DNA of 64,000 nt from a phage, in the sequence record QB031382.1; one strand, 5' to 3'. Positions 3,513 through 27,789 of this stretch are shown in pieces. Made by a program: the position numbers and the translations under genes. Positions within the stretch are counted from its first letter, which is position 1. Each line of letters opens with the position of its first letter. The notes beneath the pieces were generated by a model, which was not told the origin of the DNA, made no database searches, and was given only the letters and a program-made list of their open reading frames with translations.

Positions 3513-4277
3513 TTGAAATTCATCTACAAAGAACACTACCACAAAGGTGTTGTGTGGAGTCTATTTGACGGGTCTGGTGGTGCAGTTATTGACTGGGCAA
3601 AAGCTGGGTACCTGTGCCTGTGCTTTAATGCAGAAGGTGCTGACCACGGCAGTTATGCAGAGGTGATAACCGATCATCCAAATATTCACTATGTGGATTA
3701 TTGGATTGACCCATGGTTCCCTCAAGAAACTTTTTGCATGTATCCAGCTCCAGACTTTATTCTTGCATTTCCTCCGTGCACGCATTTAGCGGTATCAGGA
3801 GCTGCACACTTTAAGAAAAAGCTGGCTAAGGACCCACTGATCCAGATTAACGCTGTAAAGGATGCTCGGGTTGCAGAAGAGTTGGGAGAGATTTACGATT
3901 GCCCGTGGCATGTAGAGAATCCTGTGGGTGTTATGTCCACGCTGTGGCGCAAACCTGATTACCGTTTTCACCCTTCTGATTATGGCGGGTATTTACCGGA
4001 GGATGATGTAAACCCCTGGTTTCCTGAATTTATAGCTCCACGTGATGCCTATCCAAAAATAACTTGCGGCTGGATAGGTAATGGATTTATAATCCCGGTC
4101 ACAAAACCTGTCCCGCAAATAGTTGACGCGGTTAGCGGGTATTCCATGCAACACGCCAAGCTGGGGGGAAAGAGTGCAAGAACAAAGATGATTCGAAGCC
4201 TCACACCCCGTGGCTGGGCAAAAGCTGTATTCTTAGCAAACGAGCCTGCAGTAAGGAGCAGAATTAATGGGAAGTAA
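3513..4277 (+). CDS. C5-cytosine DNA methyltransferase-like protein (small)
   Basis: Motif I WSLFDGSGG, PC motif AFPPCTHLAVSGA, ENV-like HVENPVGV, motif X-like GNGFIIPV; TTG start after SD AGGAGA, since the tool start lies inside the terminator. Confidence 0.55.
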   Translation: MKFIYKEHYHKGVVWSLFDGSGGAVIDWAKAGYLCLCFNAEGADHGSYAEVITDHPNIHYVDYWIDPWFPQETFCMYPAPDFILAFPPCTHLAVSGAAHFKKKLAKDPLIQINAVKDARVAEELGEIYDCPWHVENPVGVMSTLWRKPDYRFHPSDYGGYLPEDDVNPWFPEFIAPRDAYPKITCGWIGNGFIIPVTKPVPQIVDAVSGYSMQHAKLGGKSARTKMIRSLTPRGWAKAVFLANEPAVRSRINGK

Positions 4278-6345
4278 ATTTATGGCATCTGCATACAACC
4301 GTTTCGGTGAGCCAAACCCGAAAGCAACTAAGTATAAAAGTGGGGGAAGTGTGAAACGAGACTATCGTGATGAAAAAGAAGTTGAAACTGTAGAGACTGT
4401 TTTAGAAAATACCAAAATTGTCCCCGTCCCACAACAAAATATCGGTCTGATGGCTGCACAATATTTTGGTGTGCGATCAGCATTATCCCAAGAAGATGGT
4501 GTGACAGTCACTGCAACATATTTCCCATATTACGACCGCTACGGAAATCTGTCCGGTTTCAAAAAGCGTGACTGGACGATTCCTAAAGAGCAAAGAGGCC
4601 ATTTCTCCGTTGTTGGCATAGTAAAGGCTAACTCTCAGATGTTTGGTCAAAAGCTGTGTGCATCTTCCAACAACCGTAAGCAGATTAACGTTTGTGAGGG
4701 AGAAGGTGATGTTATTGCAGCATGGCAGGCTGCATATCAGATACAAGTAAAAGGGATTCTCACCAACGCTAAAGCCCCGGCAAAGGTGAAACAGTGGGCT
4801 AAAGAGGTCCAGGACGGGATCGATGCAGTTATCAACGGTGGCGATCTGGCAGGAAAACCATGCCTGCCTTTTGTTGGAATTAACTGTGGATGTGCAAACG
4901 CAGTAGATACTTTTGCAAACAATGAGAAGTTTATCCGTAGCTATGGAACAGTTGTGCTGGCAATGGATAACGATGCAGCTAACGAGGTAGAGAAGCAAAA
5001 ACACGTCATTAAAGGTGTTGAGGCCACGCACAATATCGCAGCATTTTTGATGGCTGATAACGTTTACCACGTGGAATATCCTGGCGAGGTAAACGACCCT
5101 GATGGTGTAAAAGATATCCGTGACATGCTGAAGGCTAAAAAGCTGGAAGATATTGTAAACATGTTCCGGCATCCTGTTAAGTATGTGCCGGATGCTGTGT
5201 CGGATTTAGAAGACTTCTCTATCGAATCTTTGCGGAAAAAGACTTCCAACGGGGTAGATATCAGCGCAGAGTTCCCAAAACTGCAAAAAATGCTGAAAGG
5301 CTTGCACAAAGGGACACTCGTAATGCTTACAGGGCCATCAGGGGGCGGTAAAACAACTGTAGCTAAAAAACTGGAACATTGTATTGCAAGATACTTGATG
5401 GACCCGACATGCCCGAAGGCCGATGACTATGAAGAGGATGATCGTCTATGCATGATCCATCTTGAGGAGGACCCAGAGGAAGCAATTAACTCCTTGTATG
5501 CAAACCAGTTAGGGTTTGATGTTAAAGAGTTTGTTGAAGATCCTAGCCAGTTTTTAACTGATCAAGAACACGCAGAGATTCACCAATCATGGGCAAAAGC
5601 TGGAAAAATCAAAGTGTTCAAACATTTCGGATCTATTCCGGTGGACGAGTTGATTACCAAGCTTAAGCAAATGGTTTGCCTGTACCATTGCCGTTATATT
5701 GTGCTGGATCACCTGTCCATGGTAATTTCAGGGCTTAATGTTAAGGATGAGCGAAAAGAGCTGGACATGGCTATGACCCAACTGGCTGCGTTTTGTAAGC
5801 AGTTTAACGTGTTTATCCTAGTGATCGCTCACCTCAAACGTACAGAGATTGTGCCTCCTAAGGACAAGGATGGTAACCCGTTACCTTTCTGGTATCCTGT
5901 GCGAAAAGAGAATTTGCGAGGATCGGCTGGGCTTGAACAGTTGAGTTGGGTAGTCATAGGTGTTGAGGCTGAAGAAATGGTAGATCGTTCTCGTGGTCGT
6001 GTCCGTTTAGTAGGTCTTAAAAACCGTCCAGCAAAAACATTGGGTATTGCGGATACTTTGGTTATGGACCCACATACAGGTAAGTTCCATGATGCCAGTA
6101 ATTGGTACTGGGACAAAGAAATGCAGATGTTTACAGACGGAGAAGGTGGGGAGGTTGTTTGGAGACCTCAGGCCATGTTTGAGGACCAAGAGCATGCAGT
6201 TGTAGAAACACCTATGGGCAAGGTTGTAGCTGATAAGGTTGTAACTCCTACTATTAAGCCTGTTGACACGCAGGAAGACCTCCAGTACGATGATCCATCT
6301 TCTGATCCGGTCCCCGGTTTTGAAGATGATGAAACACCTTTTTAA
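4267..6345 (+). CDS. bifunctional DNA primase-helicase (TOPRIM + DnaB-like helicase)
   Basis: TOPRIM motifs CEGEGD and LAMDNDAANE; Walker A LTGPSGGGKTT; SD AAGGAG upstream. Confidence 0.8.
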   Translation: MGSKFMASAYNRFGEPNPKATKYKSGGSVKRDYRDEKEVETVETVLENTKIVPVPQQNIGLMAAQYFGVRSALSQEDGVTVTATYFPYYDRYGNLSGFKKRDWTIPKEQRGHFSVVGIVKANSQMFGQKLCASSNNRKQINVCEGEGDVIAAWQAAYQIQVKGILTNAKAPAKVKQWAKEVQDGIDAVINGGDLAGKPCLPFVGINCGCANAVDTFANNEKFIRSYGTVVLAMDNDAANEVEKQKHVIKGVEATHNIAAFLMADNVYHVEYPGEVNDPDGVKDIRDMLKAKKLEDIVNMFRHPVKYVPDAVSDLEDFSIESLRKKTSNGVDISAEFPKLQKMLKGLHKGTLVMLTGPSGGGKTTVAKKLEHCIARYLMDPTCPKADDYEEDDRLCMIHLEEDPEEAINSLYANQLGFDVKEFVEDPSQFLTDQEHAEIHQSWAKAGKIKVFKHFGSIPVDELITKLKQMVCLYHCRYIVLDHLSMVISGLNVKDERKELDMAMTQLAAFCKQFNVFILVIAHLKRTEIVPPKDKDGNPLPFWYPVRKENLRGSAGLEQLSWVVIGVEAEEMVDRSRGRVRLVGLKNRPAKTLGIADTLVMDPHTGKFHDASNWYWDKEMQMFTDGEGGEVVWRPQAMFEDQEHAVVETPMGKVVADKVVTPTIKPVDTQEDLQYDDPSSDPVPGFEDDETPF

Positions 6346-6403
6346 TGTTTAACAAAGAGTGGGAGGGGTAGTACAACCGCCTCCCCTTTAAGGAGAACTG
6401 TAT

Positions 6404-8827
6404 ATGAGCATGTGGTCGTTCGATTTTGAGTCATCCGGTTTGCTGGAAGACCCAGATCTTTATTATCACTGCGGTCTGTTTAAAGAGTTGAATAAGAACC
6501 GTTTTATGCTGTTCCTTCCTCTAAATGACCGCACACACTACTCCGAGGAGGATATAGAAAAGGCTAAGAACTTCATTCTGGCAAAGAAAACTCTTTATAA
6601 AGATTTTGAAGTTCGCATAGCAGATTTTTCGGAGTTGGAAGGTTGGCTTACAGGAAATTCTGACTGGTCACCAACAGCTTTGAACTGCCATAACTGCTAC
6701 AGTTATGACTTTATGCTGATGGAAAGATTATCCGGTATTCATTTTGATATGTTCCGTGATCCTAAATGCATGGGGACTATCAACGACCACCAGGTTAACC
6801 TGTTTGATACGTTGGCGATGAGCCGAATCTTATGGCCTGATCGCCCTTTACCAAAAGGTTGTCCTGACTCCGTATTCAACCCGGTTACTAAGAAAATGCA
6901 GCCTGTTGGTCCTCACGGCCTTATGGCATGGGGCTACGCCCTTGGTAACCAGAAAGTTCAAATTGATGACTGGCGCGATCTTCCGTTGTGGAAGTATGTG
7001 GATCGTGTATTCGAGGACGTTATCATCCAGGAGCTGCTCTGGAAAGAGCTGGTAGCGGAATCAAAAGGTGTATTCTACGGCAAATCTGACATGCAGAACT
7101 TTATGTACGATCCTGCCAAAGAGAAGCCGAAAGGGTTCAAGAAGATCACCTGGAAGAACGCATTGCGCCGGGGTATGCTGCAACACTTCCTGATGGAGCT
7201 GCAGGCCCGTCAGGGTGTGTATTTTGACATAGATGGGGCTATTGCTTTACGTGACCGTTGCGATGCGTGGATGAAAGAAATCGCTGATCGTGTTGAACCA
7301 CAACTACCTTTAAAAGAGCTGTCAATGTCTCAGCGGCCCAAGTTCCCTGAAAAGCCGTTTAACCAAGATGGGACAATCTCCAATAATGGTTGGAAATGGT
7401 TAAAAGATAAGCTTGGCTATCCTGTGGACATGAGCGCTTTAGAGTTCAAAGCCCCACCTAAGCGAGCATTTACCTCCACAGGGGATGTCAGTAAGATGGG
7501 GATAAAATGGTGTGAAGAGATGGGCTGTAAAGACCCTGATAAGATGGCTGATTTCTTGAGGGGCTATATTAAGGGCACTTCCACACCACAACCTTTACCT
7601 AAAGAGCTAATGGATCAGGCAATAAGTGATCTACAGCAGAAGCGAATGCCTGACTGCAAGATACCTATGAAAATCAGCAATCAGGACGACATTAAGCGAT
7701 ACCTGATTAGTGCTGGTTGGCTTCCGACAATGTGGAGAACTAAGGATGTAACTAAAGACAGCAAGAAGAAAGCTCTACCTGATGCAGATGTTGATGCACG
7801 AGTATATGCATATATGGACGAGCTTTTAGAGTCAGAGTATTGTGACCTGATTATCAACTTCTGGAACAAAACTGATGCTAAGTTCCAGACAACCGTGCAC
7901 AAGTTCCGAAGCTTTCCTAACTCCGAAAGGATTAAAAAGGAAGTATTCGGGAAAATACGTAGAAAAGCTAGGGCACTTATTACTTCTCCGCAACTGAAAG
8001 ATACGTTTGGACACCTATGCCCTAATCTTGAAAAATTGAACGGAGAGATGGCTAAAGATATCGTCTTGTGGTTATCATTGCGAAACCGCAGATCGGTACT
8101 TGATCCAATTAAGGAGGATAAGGTTGATACTGGTCTTCTTAATCACCCACGTTTGAAGATTGACCATAAGCTTCCTGCTAAAAGTTCTGGGTTAACAAAC
8201 ACTTCCCGACAGAAACACAGTATTTGTGCGAACATGCCTAAACCATCTCCTAAAGTGGTTATGGGTAAAGAGATGCGTAGTCTGTGGGGTGTTCCTCCGG
8301 GATACTTTGAGATCGGTATTGACGGGTCCAACTTAGAGCAGCTTATCGGGGCTTGGGGTGCCTTTGAGTTCGACAACGGCTTGTATTATGATGTTGTAAG
8401 TAACGGGGACGCACACCAAAACAATGCTGAGGCATATACAAAAGTAGCAGGCAGAGAGGTGTCTCGTAACGACGGTAAACCTATCACGTATGGGGTTATG
8501 TACGGGGCACAAAAAGATAAAGTTGCAGACATGCTGGATATCTCTCCAGAGTTGGGGCAAAGGGTAATCGATGCGCTTTGGGATGCCAACCCCGGTCTTA
8601 AGGGGCGTAAAGAGGATCTAGAGAAATTCTGGGAAGCAACAGGTAAGAAATTTATCTACTCTTTTGACGGTCATGCCATTTGGACCCGCTCTAAACACTC
8701 TTTGCTTAATGCATATCAGCAAAATGGCGGTGCCTCGTTGTGCGACTTGGTCGGAATCCTCATGCACCACCAAATGGTGAAGCGTGGATGGTATGATGAG
8801 GGTGTTCGTCGTATTATTTATTACCAT
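6404..8827 (+). CDS. DNA polymerase, family A, exon 1
   Basis: Exo I SFDFESSGL, motif A GIDGSNLEQL, motif B KPITYGVMYG; exon ends at the CAT (His) codon 8825-8827 before the intron. Confidence 0.85.
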
Positions 8828-9155
8828 AAATAACATTGTGGCTTCGTGCAGTGATGCACGTCGAAAACCTCTTTAATTGACGGGAAGGCTAAGTTGACTT
8901 TTACACCTAAACATGGTAAAAGCTCAATATGCTAATCCGCAGCGAAGCATCCGAGAGGATGAACGTTCAGAGACTATCGAAAGCATAGCTCCAACATAGT
9001 TTGGTGTGAAGAAGCGAGTAGAGTAGGCCAGCAAGTGCGGTCGAAATGAGAGGTGCCTTGGTAACAAGGCAGTGAGATAGTCCGATCCATACGGGAAACT
9101 GTATGGCTATGCACGTAATGGTGCGGGGTAGCTTAACGACCTACCTGAACTATTG
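8828..9155 (+). ncRNA. group I self-splicing intron (no ORF) in the DNA polymerase gene
   Basis: Core elements P AATTGACGGGAA (8875-8886), Q AATCCGCAGC (8934-8943), R GTTCAGAGACTA (8965-8976), S GAGATAGTCC (9074-9083); U before 5' splice site pairs with guide GUGG 8838-8841; G9155 precedes 3' splice site. Confidence 0.75.
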
Positions 9156-17479: not shown

Positions 17480-18060
17480 AATCCCTGGCACATCAAACAT
17501 AAGGAGGATTTCTAAAATGGATTTCCTCCTTTTGATATTTTACCTGGCCGGATATTTTAAAATTCTTAGAAAATCAGAAAATGGATCGAAAACTAAAATG
17601 GATTTTTTCAAGACAGGCACGATAAGCTGTGCTAATCATCCTATCGTTCGCACCGTACTTCAAATCACCGTTCCAGATTTTCCGCACACACTCTCACCCT
17701 TCTACCAGAACTTTCCCAACTTACCTTCGGCCTTTTATGACAATAAGTTAATTATTATCAGTAAGTTTTGATACATCTCTCTCAGTACTCGATCTGTTTT
17801 TCATTTCAAAGATTGGATTTTCTGAAAATTTTTCTCGATAAATTTTTCGGTACTCGATCTGTTTTTCGTTTTCTGAATCGGATTTTCTTGAAATTGGTCC
17901 AGCACCAGATCTAAAATTTTTGGGAACGAAAGCGATTTTTCGTTTTCAGAAATGGATTTTTAAAATTTCTATATGGGAATATTTTATGAGGTATTATTTT
18001 ATATAGAATTGTCACGGTAGGTAATTAGCATGCTAACTAAATTTATGAAATGCGAAAAGT
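17480..18060. repeat. AT-rich non-coding region with iteron-like direct repeats
   Basis: TGGATTTT at least six times; GTACTCGATCTGTTTTTC twice, 65 bp apart. Confidence 0.5.
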
Positions 18061-18102
18061 TCTCATTTAGAATTTTGAATGATAATCATTCTCGTTTGCA
18101 GA

Positions 18103-18131
18103 ATAACGGGCACCCCCGGTGATTGTCTCCC
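18103..18131. repeat. GC-rich 29-nt element, left copy of inverted pair
   Basis: ATAACGGGCACCCCCGGTGATTGTCTCCC; exact reverse complement at 26211-26239; degenerate direct copy near 18240-18275. Confidence 0.6.
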
Positions 18132-18640
18132 GGCCCCTACTGCCCCGGCTTGCTATTATAGTATCACACAGGACAAAGAAAGCAAGGAGTTTTTGCATAA
18201 ATTTTTAGACGATAATGATAATCGTTCTCATTTCATGCAGCGCCCATCCCCGGTGGTTGTCTCCCCCGTCACCGGTGCCTGCCGTCCTTTCGATATGTAT
18301 ATTGTGCCACCTGGCGGGGCCGCTGTCAACACTTTTCAAAAATTTTTTTCTAACCTGATGCACTAACCGCTGCAACCTGGCGGGGCCAGCCTGGCAGGAC
18401 CTAACTGACCAGGTGGGCCTATGCTATAGGATAGGTAACAATTGAAGAGGAGGTACAAAAAATGGAAGGTAATATGATCCCCTGGAAAATGTAGCTATTA
18501 ATGACGCTGAGGCTATCGCCCTGGTTGAAAAGGCTATGGCGGGAGCGTTGGAACATAAAGAAGAGTACGAAAAAATTATGGTTAACCTGGCAGGGTCGGC
18601 GGCTGAGGAATTTTGCCCAAAAAATAATTTTAACTAGTGG

Positions 18641-18983: not shown

Positions 18984-19382
18984 ATGAAAACCACTACCTT
19001 TAATTTTGACAATGCGGACTTTTCTTTTTCTGATGTCAAGAACTGCCGCCGTGATCGTGGATTTTATAAGGCTTATAATCTGGTGGGCCTGGACGATGAC
19101 AATAATTTGCACGAAGTAGCTGAGATCCGGTATTATGCCGCCGCCAGTGGGAACACTCACTACTGCGTTTTTTGGATACACGACAACAAGAACAATAAGT
19201 ACGGCTATACTGGCGGCAAGGCGAGCGGTCACGGTTATGATAAAGCTAACGCAGCACTTGAGAGCGCATTAAATGCTATGGGGATCACTGCCGACGGCTG
19301 GATCTACGAAGAAGAGTTTTTGTCGGCACTTGCTGACCGCCTGGGATATAAAAAGCACATTGTAACATGTGCCCACGAATAA
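18984..19382 (+). CDS. hypothetical protein
   Basis: SD AAGAGGA upstream. Confidence 0.5.
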   Translation: MKTTTFNFDNADFSFSDVKNCRRDRGFYKAYNLVGLDDDNNLHEVAEIRYYAAASGNTHYCVFWIHDNKNNKYGYTGGKASGHGYDKANAALESALNAMGITADGWIYEEEFLSALADRLGYKKHIVTCAHE

Positions 19383-19393
19383 AAAAAAAATTA

Positions 19394-19421
19394 TTGACAC
19401 GCTGCAAAATTCAAGTAAACT
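19394..19421 (+). promoter_or_regulatory. sigma70-like promoter
   Basis: TTGACA, 16-bp spacer, TAAACT; A10 tract upstream. Confidence 0.45.
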
Positions 19422-19431
19422 AGACACAAAA

Positions 19432-19450
19432 GGCGGGAATGTTTCCCGCC
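19432..19450 (+). promoter_or_regulatory. 5' UTR stem-loop
   Basis: GGCGGGAA-TGT-TTCCCGCC between promoter and SD; related hairpins before ORFs 20154, 21997 and 22714. Confidence 0.5.
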
Positions 19451-19469
19451 AACACAAAGGAAAAAGATC

Positions 19470-19874
19470 ATGAATAAGAACGTACGCCGCATCATGAACG
19501 AGTTGGCAAACGATGAAAAAATTATTGACATGCATTTGATCAACATTTGCCGCCGTTGTGTAACATATAACAACCGCGCCGCAAAAGCGCGTGAGATGAA
19601 CGCAAAAGGCACCTTAAAGCCATTCCAGGTGGTGGTAAAGGCCATTAAAAATGTAACTAATACGGCAAACCAGGTACAGGGGAACACCAACGAGAGTACC
19701 AATATTGATCCGGCTTACATCATGAAACGGATCCGGACCTGTAAGAACAAAGAGCAAGTGTATAATGTTATAGACTGGTTGGATTCTATGGGCGACGTGG
19801 TGTACAATAGATTCTCGGCAGCTATTGAGATCCAGCTTGACAGGTTGGACGGTAAAGTACTGAAAACTTATTAA
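19470..19874 (+). CDS. hypothetical protein
   Basis: Promoter, 5' hairpin and SD upstream. Confidence 0.55.
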   Translation: MNKNVRRIMNELANDEKIIDMHLINICRRCVTYNNRAAKAREMNAKGTLKPFQVVVKAIKNVTNTANQVQGNTNESTNIDPAYIMKRIRTCKNKEQVYNVIDWLDSMGDVVYNRFSAAIEIQLDRLDGKVLKTY

Positions 19875-19885
19875 GTTTATTTTTA

Positions 19886-19909
19886 GATGGCCTTGACTCC
19901 AGGGCCATC
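19886..19909 (+). repeat. conserved 3' RNA hairpin element, copy 1
   Basis: GATGGCCTTG-ACTC-CAGGGCCATC between TTTATTTTTA and AATAAAGTAAAC. Confidence 0.55.
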
Positions 19910-20074
19910 AATAAAGTAAACTAGTCTCAACTAAGCGAAAAAGGGGGCTTTAAGATGAGCACTACACGCCAATACACAAAGGTAACTATTATCGTTTGCG
20001 TTGTCGGTTACATCCTGGCGCAAATGTTAATGAGTAGCGCCAACAGTTTTGCAAAATTTTTCTTAAATTTTTAA

Positions 20075-20102
20075 TTGACAAGCTAACCCAAATCAGTATA
20101 CT
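20075..20102 (+). promoter_or_regulatory. sigma70-like promoter
   Basis: TTGACA, 16-bp spacer, TATACT. Confidence 0.5.
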
Positions 20103-20153
20103 TAAACACGTAAACGGGAAAACTTCCCAGAACACACAAAAGGAGAAAACACC

Positions 20154-20495
20154 ATGACTACTATGACCGCCGCAGAAAAAGCTATGCAGATCGCCGCGCT
20201 GAAAAAACAGATCGCAGACCTTGAGAACAAGATCGATAACTTTGAAATCGACGAGGACAAGTACGACGAAAACTATAATGAATGGCTAGACGAGATCCAC
20301 GGCGAAATTATGATCGGTAACATTTCTTTTCTTCCGTCGCGTATCCTCAAGGAGTTAGATCCTATCGCTTACCGCTGCGGATTTAGCGACTACATCGACA
20401 GCCTGGGCATTGAGGACGACGAAGACTATCAAGAATTGCAGACAGAGTTGGAAGAAATGAAAGAGGAGCTTTCAAAGCTGGAAGAAAACGAGTAA
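20154..20495 (+). CDS. hypothetical coiled-coil acidic protein
   Basis: Promoter, 5' hairpin and SD AAAGGAGAA upstream. Confidence 0.55.
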   Translation: MTTMTAAEKAMQIAALKKQIADLENKIDNFEIDEDKYDENYNEWLDEIHGEIMIGNISFLPSRILKELDPIAYRCGFSDYIDSLGIEDDEDYQELQTELEEMKEELSKLEENE

Positions 20496-20507
20496 AATTT
20501 ATTTTTA

Positions 20508-20531
20508 GATGGCCTTGACCCCAGGGCCATC
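20508..20531 (+). repeat. conserved 3' RNA hairpin element, copy 2
   Basis: Near-identical to copy at 19886. Confidence 0.55.
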
Positions 20532-20581
20532 AATAAAGTAAACTTTACACTGTTACACTGAACTAATGAGGAGTTAAAACT

Positions 20582-20827
20582 ATGGCAGCACTAATCACAA
20601 AATATTATGCGCCCACCAACACCAAAAGCGCCCGTATCATGGTAAAAGGTTTCGGACGTAAAAAGGTCTACACCTGGGACTATTCCCTAGATATGGAAGA
20701 CAATTATACCAACGTAATGACTGATTTTATTAATGATCTGAATAAACAGATCCTAACCGACTACAAAGTGACCGATATTGTTTACATAGGTGAAGGCGGG
20801 ATCTGTTTTGTAGGCATTGTGAAATAG
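20582..20827 (+). CDS. hypothetical protein
   Basis: SD GAGGAG upstream. Confidence 0.5.
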   Translation: MAALITKYYAPTNTKSARIMVKGFGRKKVYTWDYSLDMEDNYTNVMTDFINDLNKQILTDYKVTDIVYIGEGGICFVGIVK

Positions 20828-20837
20828 TTATTTTTTC

Positions 20838-20862
20838 GGTGGTCCTGGTTGCAGGGGCCATC
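20838..20862 (+). repeat. conserved 3' RNA hairpin element, divergent copy
   Basis: GGTGGTCCT-GGTTGC-AGGGGCCATC; substitutions keep pairing only as G-U in plus-strand RNA. Confidence 0.45.
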
Positions 20863-20903
20863 TATAAAGATAATTTATTAACACCATGAAAGGAGAAAGT
20901 AAC

Positions 20904-21257
20904 ATGATCAGCGGGGCCAGTTTTATTATCGGCGCTATTGCTACGGCTTTAATTGTAAACAAGATCCAGGATAAAAAGGAAAGAGGAAGTACCGCCCTTG
21001 CAGAATATCCATTTTGGACATTCAACGATAACGAAGATTATATTATAAAGTATAAAAATAAAGAAGGCGACCAAGTAACACCGCGACCGATCCCGGCTTA
21101 CAAAATGCAGGAAACACTATACCGCCTTGAGGCGGGCGGCGCAAAAATTGTTGACTTTTGGGGATACGACCACACAGATCAGGAAGTTATAAAGCGCCGT
21201 ATCCGGGCTATTCAGGCCAATATTGAGGTTAGCAAGAGGGGAATATATGAAAATTAA
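20904..21257 (+). CDS. hypothetical membrane protein
   Basis: SD AAAGGAGAAAG before ATG; N-terminal hydrophobic helix. Confidence 0.5.
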   Translation: MISGASFIIGAIATALIVNKIQDKKERGSTALAEYPFWTFNDNEDYIIKYKNKEGDQVTPRPIPAYKMQETLYRLEAGGAKIVDFWGYDHTDQEVIKRRIRAIQANIEVSKRGIYEN

Positions 21258-21444
21258 TTTCGAGAAAATTGTAAAGCGCCCTCATGATTCCGAAGAGTTG
21301 CCAGAACGCCGCCAGCGCAACAATAAGCTGAATAAGCCAAAAAGGTTTGGGAAGATCTGGCGTAATCATTATGATCGTAAATTGCCCGGCCTACTTTTGG
21401 AACGTGAACGACAGGCAGAACGCTACCGCCATAAAGACAAATAA
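21247..21444 (+). CDS. hypothetical basic protein
   Basis: ATG overlapping upstream gene end; Lys/Arg-rich. Confidence 0.4.
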   Translation: MKINFEKIVKRPHDSEELPERRQRNNKLNKPKRFGKIWRNHYDRKLPGLLLERERQAERYRHKDK

Positions 21445-21452
21445 CAACCAAC

Positions 21453-21480
21453 GCCCCGCCATTGTGCGGGGCTTTTTATT
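21453..21480 (+). terminator. intrinsic terminator
   Basis: Hairpin GCCCCGC-CATTGT-GCGGGGC followed by TTTTTATTT. Confidence 0.65.
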
Positions 21481-21601
21481 TCTATCCTACGAATAGCGCC
21501 CCTGGTTGGCCCTGTAAGCGCCAAAAAGGCCCCCACCTATGCAATCGCCCCTTTAACCTGAAAACATCGCCCAGGGCCGTCCTATGGCGTTAAAAATATC
21601 A

Positions 21602-21629
21602 TTGACATCGTCAACAGGTTAGCTATACT
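21602..21629 (+). promoter_or_regulatory. sigma70-like promoter
   Basis: TTGACA, 16-bp spacer, TATACT. Confidence 0.5.
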
Positions 21630-21661
21630 AACCACATCAAAGAGAGAAAGGAGTAAACGCC

Positions 21662-21922
21662 ATGCGTAAATTAAAAAATTTTGATAAAGTTGATGTTATC
21701 CTGAATAATTTTTACTACTGCAACAATAAAGCTATCTGGTGGCGGGATAGTTCCACCGATAAAGTCAAAGCGCGCTTTCTTCAAGGGCACTGGCAAGGCC
21801 GCCCAGTGATTAAAATCATGGGGCAATTGGTAGCGTTTAAAAATTGCCGCCGCGTTGATGACGTTGAGGAGATTTTAAACATTTTGCGCCACAATAATTT
21901 AAAAAATAGTGTTGACAAGTAG
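21662..21922 (+). CDS. hypothetical protein
   Basis: SD AAAGGAG upstream. Confidence 0.5.
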   Translation: MRKLKNFDKVDVILNNFYYCNNKAIWWRDSSTDKVKARFLQGHWQGRPVIKIMGQLVAFKNCRRVDDVEEILNILRHNNLKNSVDK

Positions 21923-21939
21923 ATCTCAATAAGTATAAT
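21912..21939 (+). promoter_or_regulatory. sigma70-like promoter
   Basis: TTGACA, 16-bp spacer, TATAAT. Confidence 0.55.
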
Positions 21940-21949
21940 TAAACACACA

Positions 21950-21968
21950 GGCGGGAAAACTTCCCGCC
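21950..21968 (+). promoter_or_regulatory. 5' UTR stem-loop
   Basis: GGCGGGAA-AAC-TTCCCGCC. Confidence 0.5.
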
Positions 21969-21996
21969 ACTAACAAAGAAAACAGGAGAAAATATC

Positions 21997-22620
21997 ATGA
22001 CCACCGTTAACATTACCACAGGTTACAATTTATCTTTCGACGTGCTGACCGACGAACAAAAAGAAAAAGCCATTGAAATGGTCCGCGAAAGAGAAGAACG
22101 TAGCGGGGACGATTTTTTCGCAGAAAATGTAATTGAATACTATAAAGAACAAGTTTTTCCAGAGTACGGCCTTGAGGATACCGAAGTACATTGGTCCGGC
22201 TTTTGGTGTCAAGGCGATGGCGCATCGATCAGTGCTGAAAATGTAGACTTAGAAAAATTCTTGCGTAAAGTCAAGGCCCTGACCAAGTTCAGATCAATTC
22301 GTCACTTGTTCGGCACAATGCACGATGGCGAACTATCCGCCAGTGTTGAACGCGACAAGTACAGCCATTACAGCCATGAAAACACTATAAGCGGGTACAT
22401 TGATACCACTTGGATAGATCTGACCGCCAAACAAGAAAACAAAGTGGAAGACCTGGAAGAATTGATCACCGAGACGGTACGGGAGCTATCCCGCAAGGTT
22501 TACGTAGACCTTGAGGAGGCCTATCTAGAACAGTTCACCGCAGAAAACCTGATCGGCCTTATTCAGGCCAATGATTGGCGGTTTGATGTCGATGAATATG
22601 GTGAGATGACTTTTTCATAA
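21997..22620 (+). CDS. hypothetical protein
   Basis: Promoter, hairpin and SD upstream; 207 aa. Confidence 0.55.
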   Translation: MTTVNITTGYNLSFDVLTDEQKEKAIEMVREREERSGDDFFAENVIEYYKEQVFPEYGLEDTEVHWSGFWCQGDGASISAENVDLEKFLRKVKALTKFRSIRHLFGTMHDGELSASVERDKYSHYSHENTISGYIDTTWIDLTAKQENKVEDLEELITETVRELSRKVYVDLEEAYLEQFTAENLIGLIQANDWRFDVDEYGEMTFS

Positions 22621-22628
22621 ATAAAGTG

Positions 22629-22656
22629 TTGCAATAACCTAAAAACCTGCTATATT
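22629..22656 (+). promoter_or_regulatory. sigma70-like promoter
   Basis: TTGCAA, 16-bp spacer, TATATT. Confidence 0.45.
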
Positions 22657-22713
22657 AAAACTCAAGGGGGGCAAGACATTTGCCCGCCAACACAAAACAA
22701 AGAGGATAACATC

Positions 22714-23094
22714 ATGAAAAATACTACTAAGGCTATTGACACCGTTATGTTTAACCTGGTTACACTCCGTGAAGATATGAAAGATCTTCCGCGTGAAACA
22801 GTGTGCGACCATATCGAAAACTATCGCAAACTAATCAAAGAGTTGCCATTAAAACGAGATCAGTACGCGGCTAACGCTATGCTAAACGCCATGATCAAAA
22901 AGATGATCCAGTGTGATCTAACCCTGGCCTATGATTATGCAGGCGGTCGTTTTGCAGTATACAATCAGCCCGTGCCTGGTATGAGCACCACCGAAGAATT
23001 GCACGCGCTCAATCTAAAACAGGACGTGTGGGATAGTATGCCTCGCGTGGTGGTATGGGTAGAAAGCGGGAAGATTTACGGCGATAATTTTTAA
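22714..23094 (+). CDS. hypothetical protein
   Basis: SD AAGAGGA upstream. Confidence 0.5.
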   Translation: MKNTTKAIDTVMFNLVTLREDMKDLPRETVCDHIENYRKLIKELPLKRDQYAANAMLNAMIKKMIQCDLTLAYDYAGGRFAVYNQPVPGMSTTEELHALNLKQDVWDSMPRVVVWVESGKIYGDNF

Positions 23095-23158
23095 TCAGGT
23101 AGCAGGCGGCATAATTGCCGCCTTATTGTTGATCAGAACTGCAAAAGGGGTACATAGA

Positions 23159-23530
23159 ATGGAATTTATTATTTTGGCCGTATTGGTTGCCTTATTTAAC
23201 GCCTGGATCGCTGGCAAGATGGGAAGATCCGCCTTTTTATGGTTTATTATATCTATTTTCCTGGGGGTGGTTGCAACTATTGTACTGGTTATCCTTGCAA
23301 TTGTTGACAAGGGGAATAATAGAAAGGGTAAAGTATTTTCAGACCTGTACGACGCTCAAACGTTTGTCAACGCCTATTACAGCGATCTTCCAGTCTCCCT
23401 ACGTTGCAGCCTTGCACAACAGGTTTTTGATGAGGCTAAAACCAGAGATCACGCCCATGAGATTTGTTTAACTGAGGCGGATCGCTTATTTGAGAGGAAT
23501 AGAAAATATGTGGGCCAGCCGTTTAAATAA
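23159..23530 (+). CDS. hypothetical membrane protein
   Basis: Two predicted TM helices; ATG after AAGGGG. Confidence 0.5.
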   Translation: MEFIILAVLVALFNAWIAGKMGRSAFLWFIISIFLGVVATIVLVILAIVDKGNNRKGKVFSDLYDAQTFVNAYYSDLPVSLRCSLAQQVFDEAKTRDHAHEICLTEADRLFERNRKYVGQPFK

Positions 23531-23873
23531 TACCACGTTAATTAATCCATTTAGTGAAGATTTGAGGCCAGCCGCCTGGCGGAATGGATTCAATAACGAA
23601 AAATTTACTTTTAGGCCTGATCTTGAGGAATTTTATAACAATGGATCGAACAACGACAGAAATAATTTTTCTCGTAATGTGCGTGGCGATAATACTCCTG
23701 GGGGCCATTGTAAACCACGTCACTGCTAACAGGAGGAAAGGGGGAGACGATGACAACCAAGGATAAGCCCAGCACCGACAAGGCGCGCCGCGTTATGGTA
23801 TGGCTTGAGATTATCGCCCTTGAAATATTGTTAGGCGTAGGGATGTATTTTATCGCCGTACGTACCTGATAAC

Positions 23874-23906
23874 GGCCCCCGATCCCTGGGGGCCTGACTT
23901 TTTTCA
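23874..23906 (+). terminator. intrinsic terminator
   Basis: Hairpin GGCCCCC-GATCCCT-GGGGGCC followed by T-rich tract. Confidence 0.55.
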
Positions 23907-23933
23907 AAAAAAAAAATTTTTTCTTCCGGGGTG

Positions 23934-23961
23934 TTGCAATCCGGTCCGGAATATGGATAAT
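23934..23961 (+). promoter_or_regulatory. sigma70-like promoter
   Basis: TTGCAA, 16-bp spacer, GATAAT; shares ATATGGATAATA box with promoter at 24752. Confidence 0.45.
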
Positions 23962-24020
23962 AACAATCAACGGGGAGACACTCCCCACCACACAGACAAA
24001 GTTCCAAAAGGAGAAACAAA

Positions 24021-24221
24021 ATGAGCAACAATATCCGCGTTATTAACTTCAAAAAAGAAGAAAAAATAGCTGTGCTGGTTGATGGTCAAGAAATATTCAA
24101 GGGGTATTACGAAGATCATCAGGCGGCGATCAGTATTACCCGCGTAATTGGTTACCATAATTTTTACCCTCAAGGCGCTGAGGCAGCAGTAAAACGAATT
24201 AAGGAGATTGTAGGCCTGTAA
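24021..24221 (+). CDS. hypothetical protein
   Basis: SD AAAGGAGAA upstream. Confidence 0.5.
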   Translation: MSNNIRVINFKKEEKIAVLVDGQEIFKGYYEDHQAAISITRVIGYHNFYPQGAEAAVKRIKEIVGL

Positions 24222-24233
24222 AATTTATTTTTA

Positions 24234-24257
24234 GATGGCCTTGACCCCAGGGCCATC
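24234..24257 (+). repeat. conserved 3' RNA hairpin element, copy 3
   Basis: Near-identical to copies at 19886 and 20508. Confidence 0.55.
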
Positions 24258-24313
24258 AAATAAAGTAAATTTAAAACCTGTTAAAATAATCAGTGCAAAA
24301 AGGAGAAATGATC

Positions 24314-24613
24314 ATGTTTATACCCGCCAATGATCTTTATTTCTTTGATGGTCAGATCGTAGACGGCGTGGAAGTTGAGATCGCTGGATGTAAAGGCGGC
24401 CAGGTAATGATCTTCCGCAATAGTGCCTTTAACGATCATTTTATTACAATGACTGTGGAAGTTAAAAAGCTGGATGATAAGAAAACACTCATTGACTATT
24501 CCGTGAAAGATCATCCAGACTACCACATGATCTATGGTGATTTGTGCATTGTTGACCGTGACAAGGTGGGCGGCATTGTGATCGCTATTGTGAACGATGT
24601 TTTCTCTGAATAA
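24314..24613 (+). CDS. hypothetical protein
   Basis: SD AAGGAGAA 8 nt before ATG. Confidence 0.5.
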   Translation: MFIPANDLYFFDGQIVDGVEVEIAGCKGGQVMIFRNSAFNDHFITMTVEVKKLDDKKTLIDYSVKDHPDYHMIYGDLCIVDRDKVGGIVIAIVNDVFSE

Positions 24614-24673
24614 TTCCGGCAAATGATGCAAAATAAGGCCCATGGCAGGGCCTGCAGCGATATAATCACACAA

Positions 24674-24703
24674 AGGCTATGCAGTTGCATGGCCTTTTTA
24701 TTT
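24674..24703 (+). terminator. intrinsic terminator
   Basis: Hairpin AGGCTATGCA-GT-TGCATGGCCT followed by TTTTATTTT. Confidence 0.5.
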
Positions 24704-24751
24704 TAGCGCTACAGCGGCCCCCAAGGCGTTTAAAAAATTTTTAAAAAGTAC

Positions 24752-24779
24752 TTGCATCAAGTCCGACAATATGGATAAT
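24752..24779 (+). promoter_or_regulatory. sigma70-like promoter
   Basis: TTGCAT, 16-bp spacer, GATAAT. Confidence 0.45.
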
Positions 24780-24838
24780 AGGACTTATCAGGGGGGGGCG
24801 GCCCCCAATCATTAACCGGATAGATGGGAGTTAAAATC

Positions 24839-25123
24839 ATGGCTATTGTTACCGTGGGCGATGTAGTAGAAATGGAAGCAAAATACTTAAAAGCGGGTAT
24901 GCATATCCTACGCAACGATCTTGAACTAGTCCTGACAATGGTCGACTATAATCCCGGTCAGGATTATCCAAGCATCGACTACTTTTTCCAGTATGTTGAC
25001 GAAGAATTAAAAGAAGATGACGCTTATCGTGGTGAATTTTGCAATTTCTTTTGCCCTGATGAGGTTGTAAAAGTTATCTATCAACCTGGCGTACCTTTCC
25101 CGTTGCACGCCATCAATAAATAA
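24839..25123 (+). CDS. hypothetical protein
   Basis: ATG after GGGAG. Confidence 0.5.
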   Translation: MAIVTVGDVVEMEAKYLKAGMHILRNDLELVLTMVDYNPGQDYPSIDYFFQYVDEELKEDDAYRGEFCNFFCPDEVVKVIYQPGVPFPLHAINK

Positions 25124-26978: not shown

Positions 26979-27731
26979 TGCTCTTTTCCTACCATAAACG
27001 GCCCTACCTGGCAAGTGGAATAATTGACGAGCCATTAATCCCGCACACTGTACAAATATACATATAAAATAACTATTGCATAATCTTTCATCTTGTGGTA
27101 GCAGGGTCATTTTTACACGTTTTTCCTTCCAAAAATGCACGTAATGCAGCTATTGCACAAAATTTAACCTGATGCACATTTTCAGCATACTGTCAACAAT
27201 TAAAAACCCTTATAAATCATACACTTACACAAACCAAAAAGCGTGTCCTACGTGAAAAATCGGGTGTAACTATAGCCGACAGATCTCAGAATCCACGTAC
27301 GATCACCATTCTATAGCCTGCTAAGTATTTATTCCAACCACAGAATAACGGAATAGTCAATACCTGTACAAAATAATTATTCGTATAAACTGCATAACAT
27401 AAATTTTCTCATGTGTAAACATTTTTCGTAAACAGTCCGAAATTGTCACGATAGGTTACTATAATCAGAGAAATCTTTAGTCGTCTAATGTTTACTGCAC
27501 ATAACTATACTGACTGGAATCATTAGATGACTAAGAGAAAGATAAGAAATAGTTAACAATGTAATTGTTTTACCTGTAACAATAAGGCAACTATGCAAAC
27601 GAATGTCATGGCGCGACGGAGTCGCGACATAATATAAAAGCAGTAACCATCACCCCCGTGATAGTTTATCTGCAAACTATTGATCAGATCATAGTTGCCT
27701 TAGATTTAGTTAATCATGACATAATAAGCAA

Positions 27732-27759
27732 GGCAACTATAGATCTGATAATAGTTGCC
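27732..27759. repeat. perfect palindrome
   Basis: GGCAACTAT-AGATCTGAT-AATAGTTGCC; half-sites recur nearby. Confidence 0.55.
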
Positions 27760-27789
27760 CTGCTTTTATATTATGTCATATATTATTAA

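Follow-up and report, generated by a model that had tools for sequence, protein, structure and literature searches.

The window, i.e., the whole 64-kb stretch of DNA that was analysed, comes from an rV5/FV3-like Vequintavirus, a phage of E. coli. In its early region, four small genes (ORF ends at 19874, 20495, 20827, and 24221) have their stops at copies of one hairpin element, c1 to c4 (Table 1). Exactly four copies were recovered by nhmmer and by a covariance model, the latter run over the window without filters, and all of them lie on the + (sense) strand; the count in the whole FV3 genome is likewise exactly four. At every site the upstream ORF's stop codon and the base of the lower stem overlap, and the next gene starts 30-45 nt from the hairpin. 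The units around the hairpins are ordered promoter-gene-hairpin-gene, and the canonical terminators found in a scan lie elsewhere (21453, 23104, and 23874). The strong promoters of the region, whose spacers are all 16-17 bp, form a separate type of cassette, consisting of a promoter and a 5' stem-loop. No strong promoter of its own was found by the promoter scan upstream of the ORF that follows c3 (354 nt, equal in length to FV3 ORF174), and read-through of c3 is therefore needed.

A preliminary description of this DNA had reported a repeated GC-rich stem after the stops at 19874, 20495, and 24221. The stem, GATGGCCTTG-N4-CAGGGCCATC, is indeed matched exactly on the + strand at 19886-19909, 20508-20531, and 24234-24257, with no match expected by chance (100 shuffles), and the divergent copy that had been placed after 20827 is present at 20838-20862. 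The 10-bp stem and 4-nt loop stand as described; the length, given as about 45 nt, has to be extended to about 55 nt to include a lower stem. Besides the lower stem, that description had missed the sigma-70-like motif embedded in the element and the repeats as recombination joints.

Table 1. Hairpin copies, their stems and embedded motifs, and the neighbouring genes (positions in the window)
Feature	Position	Strand	Details
ORF upstream of c1 (134 aa)	19470-19874	+	stop TAA 19872-19874; promoter 19394-19421
Hairpin copy c1	19872-19926	+	covariance model 80.3 bits; exact stem match
c1 lower stem	19874-19883 / 19913-19922	+	from the fold
c1 upper stem	19886-19895 / 19900-19909	+	from the fold; loop ACTC 19896-19899
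c1 sigma-70-like motif	19893-19922	+	TTGACT-N18-TAAACT, 9/12; preceded by UP-like tract AAGTTTATTTTT
ORF downstream of c1 (39 aa)	19955-20074	+	from the ORF list
ORF upstream of c2 (113 aa)	20154-20495	+	strong promoter 20075-20102; 5' stem-loop 20116-20128
Hairpin copy c2	20494-20548	+	covariance model 77.1 bits
c2 lower stem	20498-20505 / 20535-20542	+	additional pairs 20493-20496 / 20544-20547
c2 upper stem	20508-20517 / 20522-20531	+	loop ACCC
c2 sigma-70-like motif	20515-20544	+	TTGACC-N18-TAAACT, 9/12
ORF between c2 and c3 (81 aa)	20582-20827	+	from the ORF list
Hairpin copy c3, divergent	20824-20879	+	covariance model 61.9 bits
c3 lower stem	20826-20835 / 20866-20875	+	from the fold
c3 upper stem	20838-20847 / 20852-20862	+	G-U wobbles; extra G in window phage
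ORF downstream of c3	20904-21257	+	AAGGAG before start 20904
ORF upstream of c4 (66 aa)	24021-24221	+	promoter 23934-23961
Hairpin copy c4	24220-24275	+	covariance model 75.6 bits
c4 lower stem	24221-24231 / 24262-24272	+	from the fold
c4 upper stem	24234-24243 / 24248-24257	+	loop ACCC
ORF downstream of c4	24314-24613	+	ATG 24314; RBS AAGGAG 24300-24305

From base to apex, the fold of the element consists of an AU-rich lower stem of 10 bp, an internal loop (2x3), an upper stem of 10 bp with six G-C pairs, and a 4-nt loop, about 20 bp of helix in total. The lower stem pairs the T-rich 5' tract with the A-rich 3' tract, AATAAAGTAAA. The canonical copies have minimum free energies between -21 and -25 kcal/mol and z values near -6: -25 kcal/mol and z -6.4 for c1 (internal loop UA x AAU), -21.1 and -5.9 for c2, and -23.3 and -6.0 for c4, where the internal loop has one extra A. 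The fold of c3 is weaker (-18.6 kcal/mol, z -3.8), and its reverse strand gives no fold (z -1.1). Among the 60-nt local folds in the window, the hairpins belong to the most stable. The extra G of c3 and the extra A of c4 are missing from most relatives of the window phage.

The preliminary description had made its proposal depend on conservation in related phages, and the element is found in 121 phage records, nearly all of which keep all four sites. The analysis of pairing covered 44 distinct copies, drawn from about 20 phages. Standard pairs fill 98.3% of the pair cells, as against 41-55% when partners are slid. The upper stem is 100% paired and its five variable pairs change by wobble only. 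In the lower stem, four pairs have changed on both sides (e.g., A-U/U-A swaps, G-C to A-U, and U-A to C-G). The pairing is biased to the sense strand: G-U cells number about 80, while A-C cells are few and all at the helix base; the covariance model scores 62-80 bits on the + strand and 23-41 bits on the - strand (about 35-40 bits lower); and the reverse strand folds worse. Natural indels are confined to the loops, apical or internal (one additional A in c4 of the window, a 5-nt loop in c1 of a UViG), and most of the variation is held by loop positions 3-4.

These results support conservation of pairing, specifically on the sense strand, as expected from the selection on RNA structure that had been proposed. 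The argument for action at the RNA level is good but not overwhelming, because there have been only about 10 independent substitution events, because gene conversion has homogenised the copies and so inflates the apparent conservation, and because the 3' arm plus ATAAAG is invariant (GGGCCATC-N-ATAAAG is identical in every copy, c3 included). A sequence-dependent DNA or protein site, instead of structure, could account for this invariance. A role as single-stranded DNA is also possible, since G-T pairs stabilise DNA hairpins too. The c1 copy of phage Gotham lacks half of the 3' arm; at least this copy is therefore dispensable, or the record contains a sequencing error.

The element has gone undescribed so far, and its kind is already known. 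The intercistronic hairpins R0.3, R0.5, R1, R1.1, and R1.3 of T7, known as RNase III sites (Dunn and Studier, 1983), are, with those of T3, a small family of repeated conserved hairpins between early genes, as is the element. When folded, all five T7 sites have a GC-rich upper stem of 9-13 bp, and four of the five have an interior mismatch or loop and an AU-rich lower stem of 3-8 bp, none being predicted for R1.1. The element has in common with them a GC-rich upper stem of about 10 bp, a small apical loop, the lack of a U-tract, and a 3' side more conserved than the 5' side, and with most of them the interior mismatch or loop and the AU-rich lower stem. The overlap of lower stem and upstream stop codon seen in the element recurs at R0.5; at R1 the lower stem begins 3 nt past the stop. 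The early genes of T7 and T3 are polycistronic and transcribed by the host RNA polymerase, and the same transcription probably applies to the genes around the element. The two differ in that there is no sequence similarity between them, the lower stem is longer in the element (10 bp) and its internal loop smaller (2x3), and the phage, unlike T7, is a 137-kb myovirus with, by annotation, no RNA polymerase of its own. RNase III cleavage is established for the T7 sites and predicted for the element.

The element also resembles the REP/BIME stabilisers of enterobacteria, e.g., at malE-malF, in being a repeated palindrome inside operons. REP/BIME sequences are transcribed but untranslated, and they shield upstream mRNA from 3' exonucleases without terminating transcription. 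The element would play a similar role, protecting mRNA without termination; it differs in sequence, is specific to phages, and is much rarer. A host-derived REP/MITE-like repeat is rejected because neither 5,426 complete E. coli genomes nor the GTDB representative genomes contain a match to the element. No Rfam 15 family reaches its gathering threshold on the element, the best being rhtB (24 bits vs 55); elsewhere in the window, a group I intron passes the Rfam threshold.

The reading we favour, with somewhat less than even confidence, is that the element is an intercistronic hairpin transcribed on the sense strand and acting as an mRNA processing or stability signal. The presence of the lower stem makes it a predicted substrate of the RNase III type: all four copies have an interrupted helix of about 20 bp (10 + 10 bp with the 2x3 loop), and their intercistronic position and sense orientation fit such a substrate. 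In E. coli, intergenic stretches inside transcripts are enriched for RNase III sites (PMC6212723). The searchable literature yielded no transcript data on any Vequintavirus.

Promoter activity has also to be considered. An N4-type hairpin promoter is rejected on the annotation of the complete FV3 genome, which lists no RNA polymerase gene. The element does contain a sigma-70-like motif: an UP-like tract, TTGACN, an 18-nt spacer, and TAAAYT, with the -35 of c1 at the hairpin apex and its -10 formed by the 3' strand of the lower stem. It could accordingly be a composite cassette working at the level of DNA and transcription, in which the downstream gene would have its own sigma-70 promoter (UP-like AAATTTATTTTT, -35 TTGACN at the apex, 18-bp spacer, -10 TAAAYT) and the overlapping stem-loop would attenuate transcription from upstream, as in the model put forward, and in part tested, for the RB49/phi1 PeSLs. 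The PeSLs of the T4-like phages RB49/phi1, PST, and nt-1 (Arbiol et al., 2010; Comeau et al., 2014) are likewise repeated intergenic cassettes that fill the stop-to-start gap beside ORFans in a hyperplastic early region. They comprise an AT-rich tract, -35 and -10 motifs, and an overlapping stem-loop between stop and ATG, to which the UP-like tract, the candidate sigma-70-like motif, and the stem-loop of the element would correspond, and, as with the element, recombination between their copies deletes or exchanges the enclosed genes (PMC2839356, PMC4122927). The stem-loop of the element lies in the stop-to-ATG gap and overlaps or adjoins the candidate promoter, and it is associated with ORFans and with indel or replacement breakpoints (the c1/c2 and c2/c3 chimeras, and KKE7M, described below). 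TAAACT, present in c1 and c2, recurs as the -10 of the early promoter at 19394, which appears to be genuine. Of 43 canonical copies, 42 have TTGAC, followed by a freely variable base; near invariance of the loop bases that complete TTGAC is the pattern expected of a -35 box and counts against the RNA reading. The Gotham record labels its equivalents of c2 and c4 'promoter predicted by PhagePromoter'. The KKE7M gene that follows the element has no other apparent upstream promoter and has a 5' stem-loop of the primary-transcript type about 11 nt after the putative -10.

The promoter motif itself is, however, weak. The match is 9/12 only, which is rated not above chance (the scan gives 25 such sites vs 14 expected), the spacer is 18-19 bp while the strong promoters of the region keep to 16-17 bp in cassettes of their own, and c3 lacks a -35 at the corresponding position. 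Natural indels shift the spacer from 18 to 19 bp (c4 of the window, c1 of the UViG) and leave the RNA fold intact, and a promoter does not explain the compensatory and wobble-only changes in the stems. The element is also unlike PeSLs in that it occurs just four times per genome, as a single, highly conserved sequence of 55 nt, in that its stem-loop covers the -35 instead of lying between -35 and -10, and in that its AT-rich and -10-like tracts pair, extending the helix to about 20 bp. Overall, we regard a cassette of the PeSL type as possible and rather improbable.

The copies mark sites of gene-cassette loss or exchange. In magaca, ECP32, and the IMG/VR contig L021, a c1/c2 chimera occurs, and the 622-bp c1-to-c2 segment with ORFs 19955-20074 and 20154-20495 is deleted. 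In 241Ecol014PP, a c2/c3 chimera accompanies deletion of the 81-aa ORF. KKE7M, a phi92-like phage, has a promoter-ORF-hairpin cassette matching the unit of ORF 20154-20495, and this transfer between subfamilies breaks at the element. The loops of c1 and c2 are identical within the genome in 10 of 13 genomes, spanning three alleles. All of this, together with the damaged c1 of Gotham, would be expected of a non-adaptive 55-bp palindromic repeat that has spread in the early region and undergone gene conversion, with recombination as its sole consequence. Such a repeat is nevertheless quite unlikely: c3 has diverged without being homogenised and yet keeps both stems through wobbles and double changes, the four sites all persist in nearly all of the 121 records, and neither the position at the stop codon nor the sense-strand bias is explained.

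A strong GC hairpin straight after a stop codon might also be a weak, non-canonical intrinsic terminator or attenuator that lowers expression of the distal cistron, and one PeSL stem-loop cut lacZ expression as much as rrnB T1 did (PMC2839356). A canonical terminator is rejected: the GC-rich hairpin is there, but no U-run (at least 5 of 8 U, starting 0-2 nt past the stem) follows it, the flank being AATAAAGTAAA and, on the opposite strand, TAAAAATAAA. This bears out the earlier observation that the element has no T-run on either strand, and the terminator scan picked up none of the copies. Even a weak terminator is quite unlikely, as the 3' flank is A-rich instead of U-rich on either strand, the genes after c3 and c4 require read-through, and the same region uses canonical U-tract terminators elsewhere. 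Least credible is a DNA operator or cruciform, in which the inverted repeat GATGGCC-N10-GGCCATC, either extruded or occupied by a dimeric protein from the phage or the host, would regulate early or middle transcription or replication: the invariance of GGGCCATC-N-ATAAAG would suit it, as would the one perfect and one degenerate half-site of c3, which is common among operators, but it predicts neither the complementary AT-rich flanks with compensatory changes nor 5'-arm changes that are all pairing-preserving transitions on one strand only, and no candidate binding protein has been identified.

As an mRNA processing or stability signal, the element would be transcribed by the host sigma-70 RNA polymerase within polycistronic early mRNAs; the hairpin stands at the stop codon of the unit's first gene, ahead of the next cistron. 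Host RNase III may then cut in or beside the internal loop, as at the early R sites of T7; alternatively, 3' exonucleases may be halted by the hairpin. In both cases the GC-rich upper hairpin would remain as a protective 3' cap that stabilises the message of the upstream gene, and expression of one cistron would be uncoupled from that of the other, with transcription reading through the element to the downstream gene. As a side effect, the copies recombine because they are 55-bp direct repeats, with mutual homogenisation, loss of the enclosed genes, and joints for cassette transfer as the outcome.

Four copies of a hairpin, c1 to c4, separate small early genes in the window. The preliminary description had placed an element of about 45 nt after the stops of four ORFs, with a divergent copy after the third; the ORF ends and the position of the divergent copy (c3) hold, and the observation is confirmed and extended. 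The three canonical copies share the 24-nt core GATGGCCTTG-N4-CAGGGCCATC, for which zero occurrences are expected by chance. In the 64 kb, exactly four copies are detected both by a profile HMM and by a covariance model run with filters off. The next-best covariance-model score is 13 bits, and no further degenerate copies were found in the window. The whole FV3 genome also has exactly four copies, each in gene orientation. Coordinates are collected in the table.

Coordinates of the hairpin copies, of their transcription units and of other features of the window, with related segments in two other phages
Feature	Coordinates	Strand	Remarks
Hairpin c1	19872-19926	+	core at 19886; upstream ORF 19470-19874
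Hairpin c2	20494-20548	+	core at 20508; upstream ORF 20154-20495
Hairpin c3	20824-20879	+	divergent core 20838-20862; upstream ORF 20582-20827 (81 aa)
Hairpin c4	24220-24275	+	core at 24234; upstream ORF 24021-24221
Strong sigma-70 promoters	19394, 20075, 21602, 21912, 22629, 23934		TTGACA-N16/17-TATACT-like; promoter scan
Canonical terminators	21453, 23104, 23874		terminator scan
Unit with c1	from 19394		promoter, ORF, c1, ORF
Unit with c2 and c3	from 20075 to 21453		promoter, ORF, c2, ORF, c3, two ORFs, terminator
Unit with c4	from 23934		promoter, ORF, c4, ORF
Second cassette type	19394-19460, 20075-20140, 21912-21977, 22629-22700, 23934-23995	+	stem-loop GGGAAAACTTCCC at 20116-20128
Group I intron	8818-9105	+	Rfam RF00028, 75.6 bits, full-length match
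T-rich repeats	17775-17960	+	three tandem-like copies
Most stable 60-nt local fold	18373-18432	+	-30.8 kcal/mol; upstream ORF 18079-18366
Palindromic hairpin	27718-27777		about -25 kcal/mol on each strand
KKE7M (L012, PQ356295.1), promoter with 5' stem-loop	5684-5745, 6706-6770		same design as second cassette type
KKE7M, cassette	6000-6474		94% identity to window 20072-20542
Gotham (L031, MT682716.1), c1	3888-3937		5-nt deletion

Across the region 19000-25000, identity is 96-97% with the Escherichia phages VB-EcoM-WM, SYGMH1 and FV3, and 90-95% with about 100 further rV5-like myoviruses (genus Vequintavirus). When coordinates are mapped onto FV3, the block that carries the elements corresponds to ORF166-178, small hypothetical genes whose equivalents all read in the plus direction of the window, with the DNA polymerase cluster upstream and a non-coding region of about 2 kb downstream. 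This early region is made up of short units, each with a strong sigma-70 promoter, usually a short GC 5' stem-loop, an RBS and a gene. The gene after c3 lacks a promoter of its own, so that transcription, we infer, must pass the hairpin.

Several other features of the region are recorded here in their own right. A second type of repeated cassette comprises a strong sigma-70 promoter, a short GC stem-loop about 10 nt past the -10 and then an RBS; the promoter-proximal stem-loop is presumably a hairpin that protects the 5' end of the primary transcript. This promoter and 5' stem-loop design is shared by the phi92-like phage KKE7M. The group I intron lies in the DNA polymerase region, and the FV3 polymerase is annotated in pieces beside an HNH endonuclease gene. 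The near-perfect palindromic hairpin is found at the edge of the 2-kb non-coding region, where two convergent gene blocks meet, and is a candidate for a bidirectional terminator or an origin-related structure. The T-rich repeats, with a unit of about 65 nt (TCGGTACTCGATCTGTTTTTCGTTTTC...), occupy an apparently non-coding stretch. Seventeen GenBank records (MG0656xx), named 'Campylobacter phage' with Campylobacter jejuni as the stated host, are 90-94% identical to E. coli rV5-like phages over this region, which points to a wrongly assigned host or to contamination in those data.

Folding shows that the element is larger than first described. The 5' T-rich and 3' A-rich tracts are not flanks but pair with each other as a 10-bp lower stem, AGUUUAUUUU / AAAGUAAACU, that includes one U-G pair. 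A 2x3 internal loop (UA x AAU) separates it from the 10-bp GC-rich upper stem, giving a full hairpin of about 55 nt with a helix of about 20 bp. The fold has a free energy of -21 to -25 kcal/mol (z about -6), and none of 200 shuffles is equally stable; for c3 the values are -18.6 and z -3.8. The reverse strand folds 6-12 kcal/mol more weakly, and that of c3 does not fold (z -1.1). All three canonical copies are among the window's most stable local folds of 60 nt. At each of the four sites the first lower-stem pairs overlap the upstream ORF's stop codon, and the hairpin is followed, after 30-45 nt, by the next start codon. Two indels are private to this phage, an extra G in the 3' arm of c3 (20852-20862) and an extra A in the internal loop of c4 (24258-24261), and the fold tolerates both. 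The most stable 60-nt local fold in the window is a separate long GC-rich hairpin that begins 7 nt past an ORF stop and has no U-tract; it may represent a further intercistronic RNA element, from a sequence family of its own.

The element occurs in 121 phage records; all are rV5-like, and the usual set is the three canonical places plus c3. Copies gathered from about 20 genomes or contigs were aligned both by hand-anchoring with MAFFT (alignment A2, 32 distinct sequences) and to the covariance model (alignment A3, 68 copies, 44 distinct). Standard pairs fill 98.3% of the pair cells of the two-helix structure, a value not matched in any of 500 column shuffles; with the 3' partners shifted by 1-3 columns, just 41-55% are paired. 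The 3' arm and ATAAAG are invariant across copies. The upper stem is 100% paired, and in each of its five variable pairs a single partner changes, always by wobble (A-U to G-U, C-G to U-G, U-G to C-G, G-C to G-U, U-A to U-G). Four lower-stem pairs have changed on both sides: A-U/U-A swaps distinguish the canonical copies from c3, the second pair is G-C, A-U or G-U, and U-A has become C-G among c3 variants. Unpaired cells occur only in the two outermost variable pairs, chiefly in c2, and the indels that occur naturally affect the apical or internal loop (the extra A of c4 in the window; a loop of 5 nt in one UViG copy).

The preliminary description had held that pairing is maintained in plus-strand RNA. 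This is supported by the wobble-only and two-sided changes, by about 80 G-U cells as against a handful of A-C cells (A-C being G-U on the opposite strand), and by covariance-model scores of 62-80 bits on the plus and 23-41 bits on the minus strand, within the limit that G-T pairs would stabilise single-stranded DNA also. The argument is limited further in that the independent substitution events number only about ten, all sequences are from one genus, and the 3' arm with ATAAAG does not vary. Outside the rV5-like phages, a search of IMG/VR with the 3'-arm pattern gave mostly chance matches inside coding sequence (sequences L014-L030), and a metagenome scan added just a few rV5-like contigs; homologues of the flanking genes exist in distant phages. 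The power of covariation thus remains confined to one genus.

The best-supported mechanism, proposed tentatively, is that of a transcribed intercistronic hairpin that would process and/or cap the early message upstream of it, with host RNase III as the most plausible agent. For comparison, the T7 early intercistronic regions R0.3 to R1.3 were folded, which we take to be the RNase III sites of Dunn and Studier (1983). All five folds have a GC-rich upper stem of 9-13 bp, and four also have a shorter AU-rich lower stem and an interior mismatch or loop, none being predicted at R1.1. In T7 the lower stem and the upstream stop codon overlap at R0.5, and at R1 the stem starts 3 nt past the stop; the T7 sites too are a repeated family between early genes. 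RNase III sites of E. coli, mapped transcriptome-wide, show enrichment in the intergenic parts of transcripts (PMC6212723). The present element has features in common both with the T7 sites and with the promoter-early stem-loop (PeSL) cassettes of T4-like phages, which combine an AT-rich tract, a sigma-70-like promoter and an overlapping stem-loop, occupy stop-to-ATG gaps beside ORFans, and recombine, deleting or exchanging genes (PMC2839356, PMC4122927).

The main rival, a PeSL-like promoter or attenuator cassette, is compatible with RNA processing, and we regard it as rather unlikely. The apex and 3' half of the hairpin read TTGACN-N18-TAAAYT, preceded by AAATTTATTTTT, which matches the UP-element core. 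TTGAC is almost invariant, with a variable sixth base, and TAAACT also serves as the -10 at 19394, an apparently real promoter; however, c3 has no -35, the spacer is 18 bp (19 bp in c4 of the window through the extra A), and the motif in c1 and c2 has 9 of 12 matches, a level at which hits do not exceed chance (25 found, 14 expected). PhagePromoter predictions are annotated at c2 and c4 in one GenBank record, and the downstream gene in KKE7M has a 5' stem-loop of the primary-transcript type at the right distance, but a promoter leaves the compensatory stem changes unexplained. We think it improbable that a single 55-bp module acts jointly as an RNase III/3'-cap RNA hairpin, a sigma-70 DNA promoter and a portable recombination joint. 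The UP-like tract and the -10 would then be the two lower-stem strands, with the -35 at the apex; processing of the upstream message would be coupled to re-initiation for the downstream gene, and the joint would move whole promoter-ORF-hairpin cassettes between Vequintavirinae and phi92-like Stephanstirmvirinae.

A mini-ORF inside the hairpin (ATG GCC TTG ACN CCA GGG CCA TCA ATA AAG TAA, MALTPGPSIK; VVLVAGPSIK... in c3), whose third-position variation seemed synonymous at first, is ruled out: it has no Shine-Dalgarno sequence, its ATG is buried in the stem, four independent frame-breaking indels occur in 57 copies, and non-synonymous events are about as many as synonymous ones. A canonical terminator, already rejected in the preliminary description, is likewise ruled out, as neither strand has a U-run after the stem and the terminator scan, which does detect canonical terminators in the same region, passes over the elements. 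A known RNA family (no Rfam match at gathering threshold or E<10) and a host-derived or REP-like repeat (no match in E. coli chromosomes or GTDB representative genomes) are rejected as well. The element is not described in the rV5 genome paper or its tables, which list neither hairpins nor promoters at these sites, in the EdH4 terminator annotation or in Rfam, and a literature search found no published Vequintavirus transcriptomics. It is an undescribed sequence family of known kind.

As a by-product, the copies demonstrably recombine with one another. In 10 of 13 genomes c1 and c2 have the same loop, three alleles (ACAC, ACTC, ACTT) being in circulation, and c2 and c4 of the window both have the loop ACCC; these shared loops imply that copies convert one another. 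Magaca, ECP32 and the IMG/VR contig L021 have one chimeric copy, flanked as c1 is on the 5' side and as c2 is on the 3' side, and lack the intervening 622 bp (two ORFs). The junction of a c2/c3 chimera in 241Ecol014PP lies within the invariant GGGCCATC-N-ATAAAG, and the 81-aa ORF is missing. KKE7M, a Justusliebigvirus of the Stephanstirmvirinae, carries, at 94% identity, a complete cassette of promoter (20075 in the window), 5' stem-loop, ORF (20154-20495) and hairpin, which indicates a recent transfer between phage subfamilies. Homology stops at the 3' edge of the hairpin, where the breakpoint lies. A 5-nt deletion (GGGCC) destroys the upper-stem 3' arm of c1 in Gotham; either this copy is dispensable or the record contains a hairpin-induced sequencing error.

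The rV5-like phages have been isolated widely and serve in work on therapy and biocontrol, and we know of nothing established experimentally about their early-gene expression, on which the element provides a precise, testable handle. If RNase III cuts the element, rV5-like myoviruses share the host-dependent mRNA processing logic of T7, and differing levels of dozens of tiny early ORFans from shared transcripts would be explained. Whatever their function, the elements predict the sites at which cassettes are lost, gained or swapped, which is useful for annotating and engineering these phages, and they extend the PeSL idea, that regulatory repeats serve as shuffling joints, past the T4-like phages.
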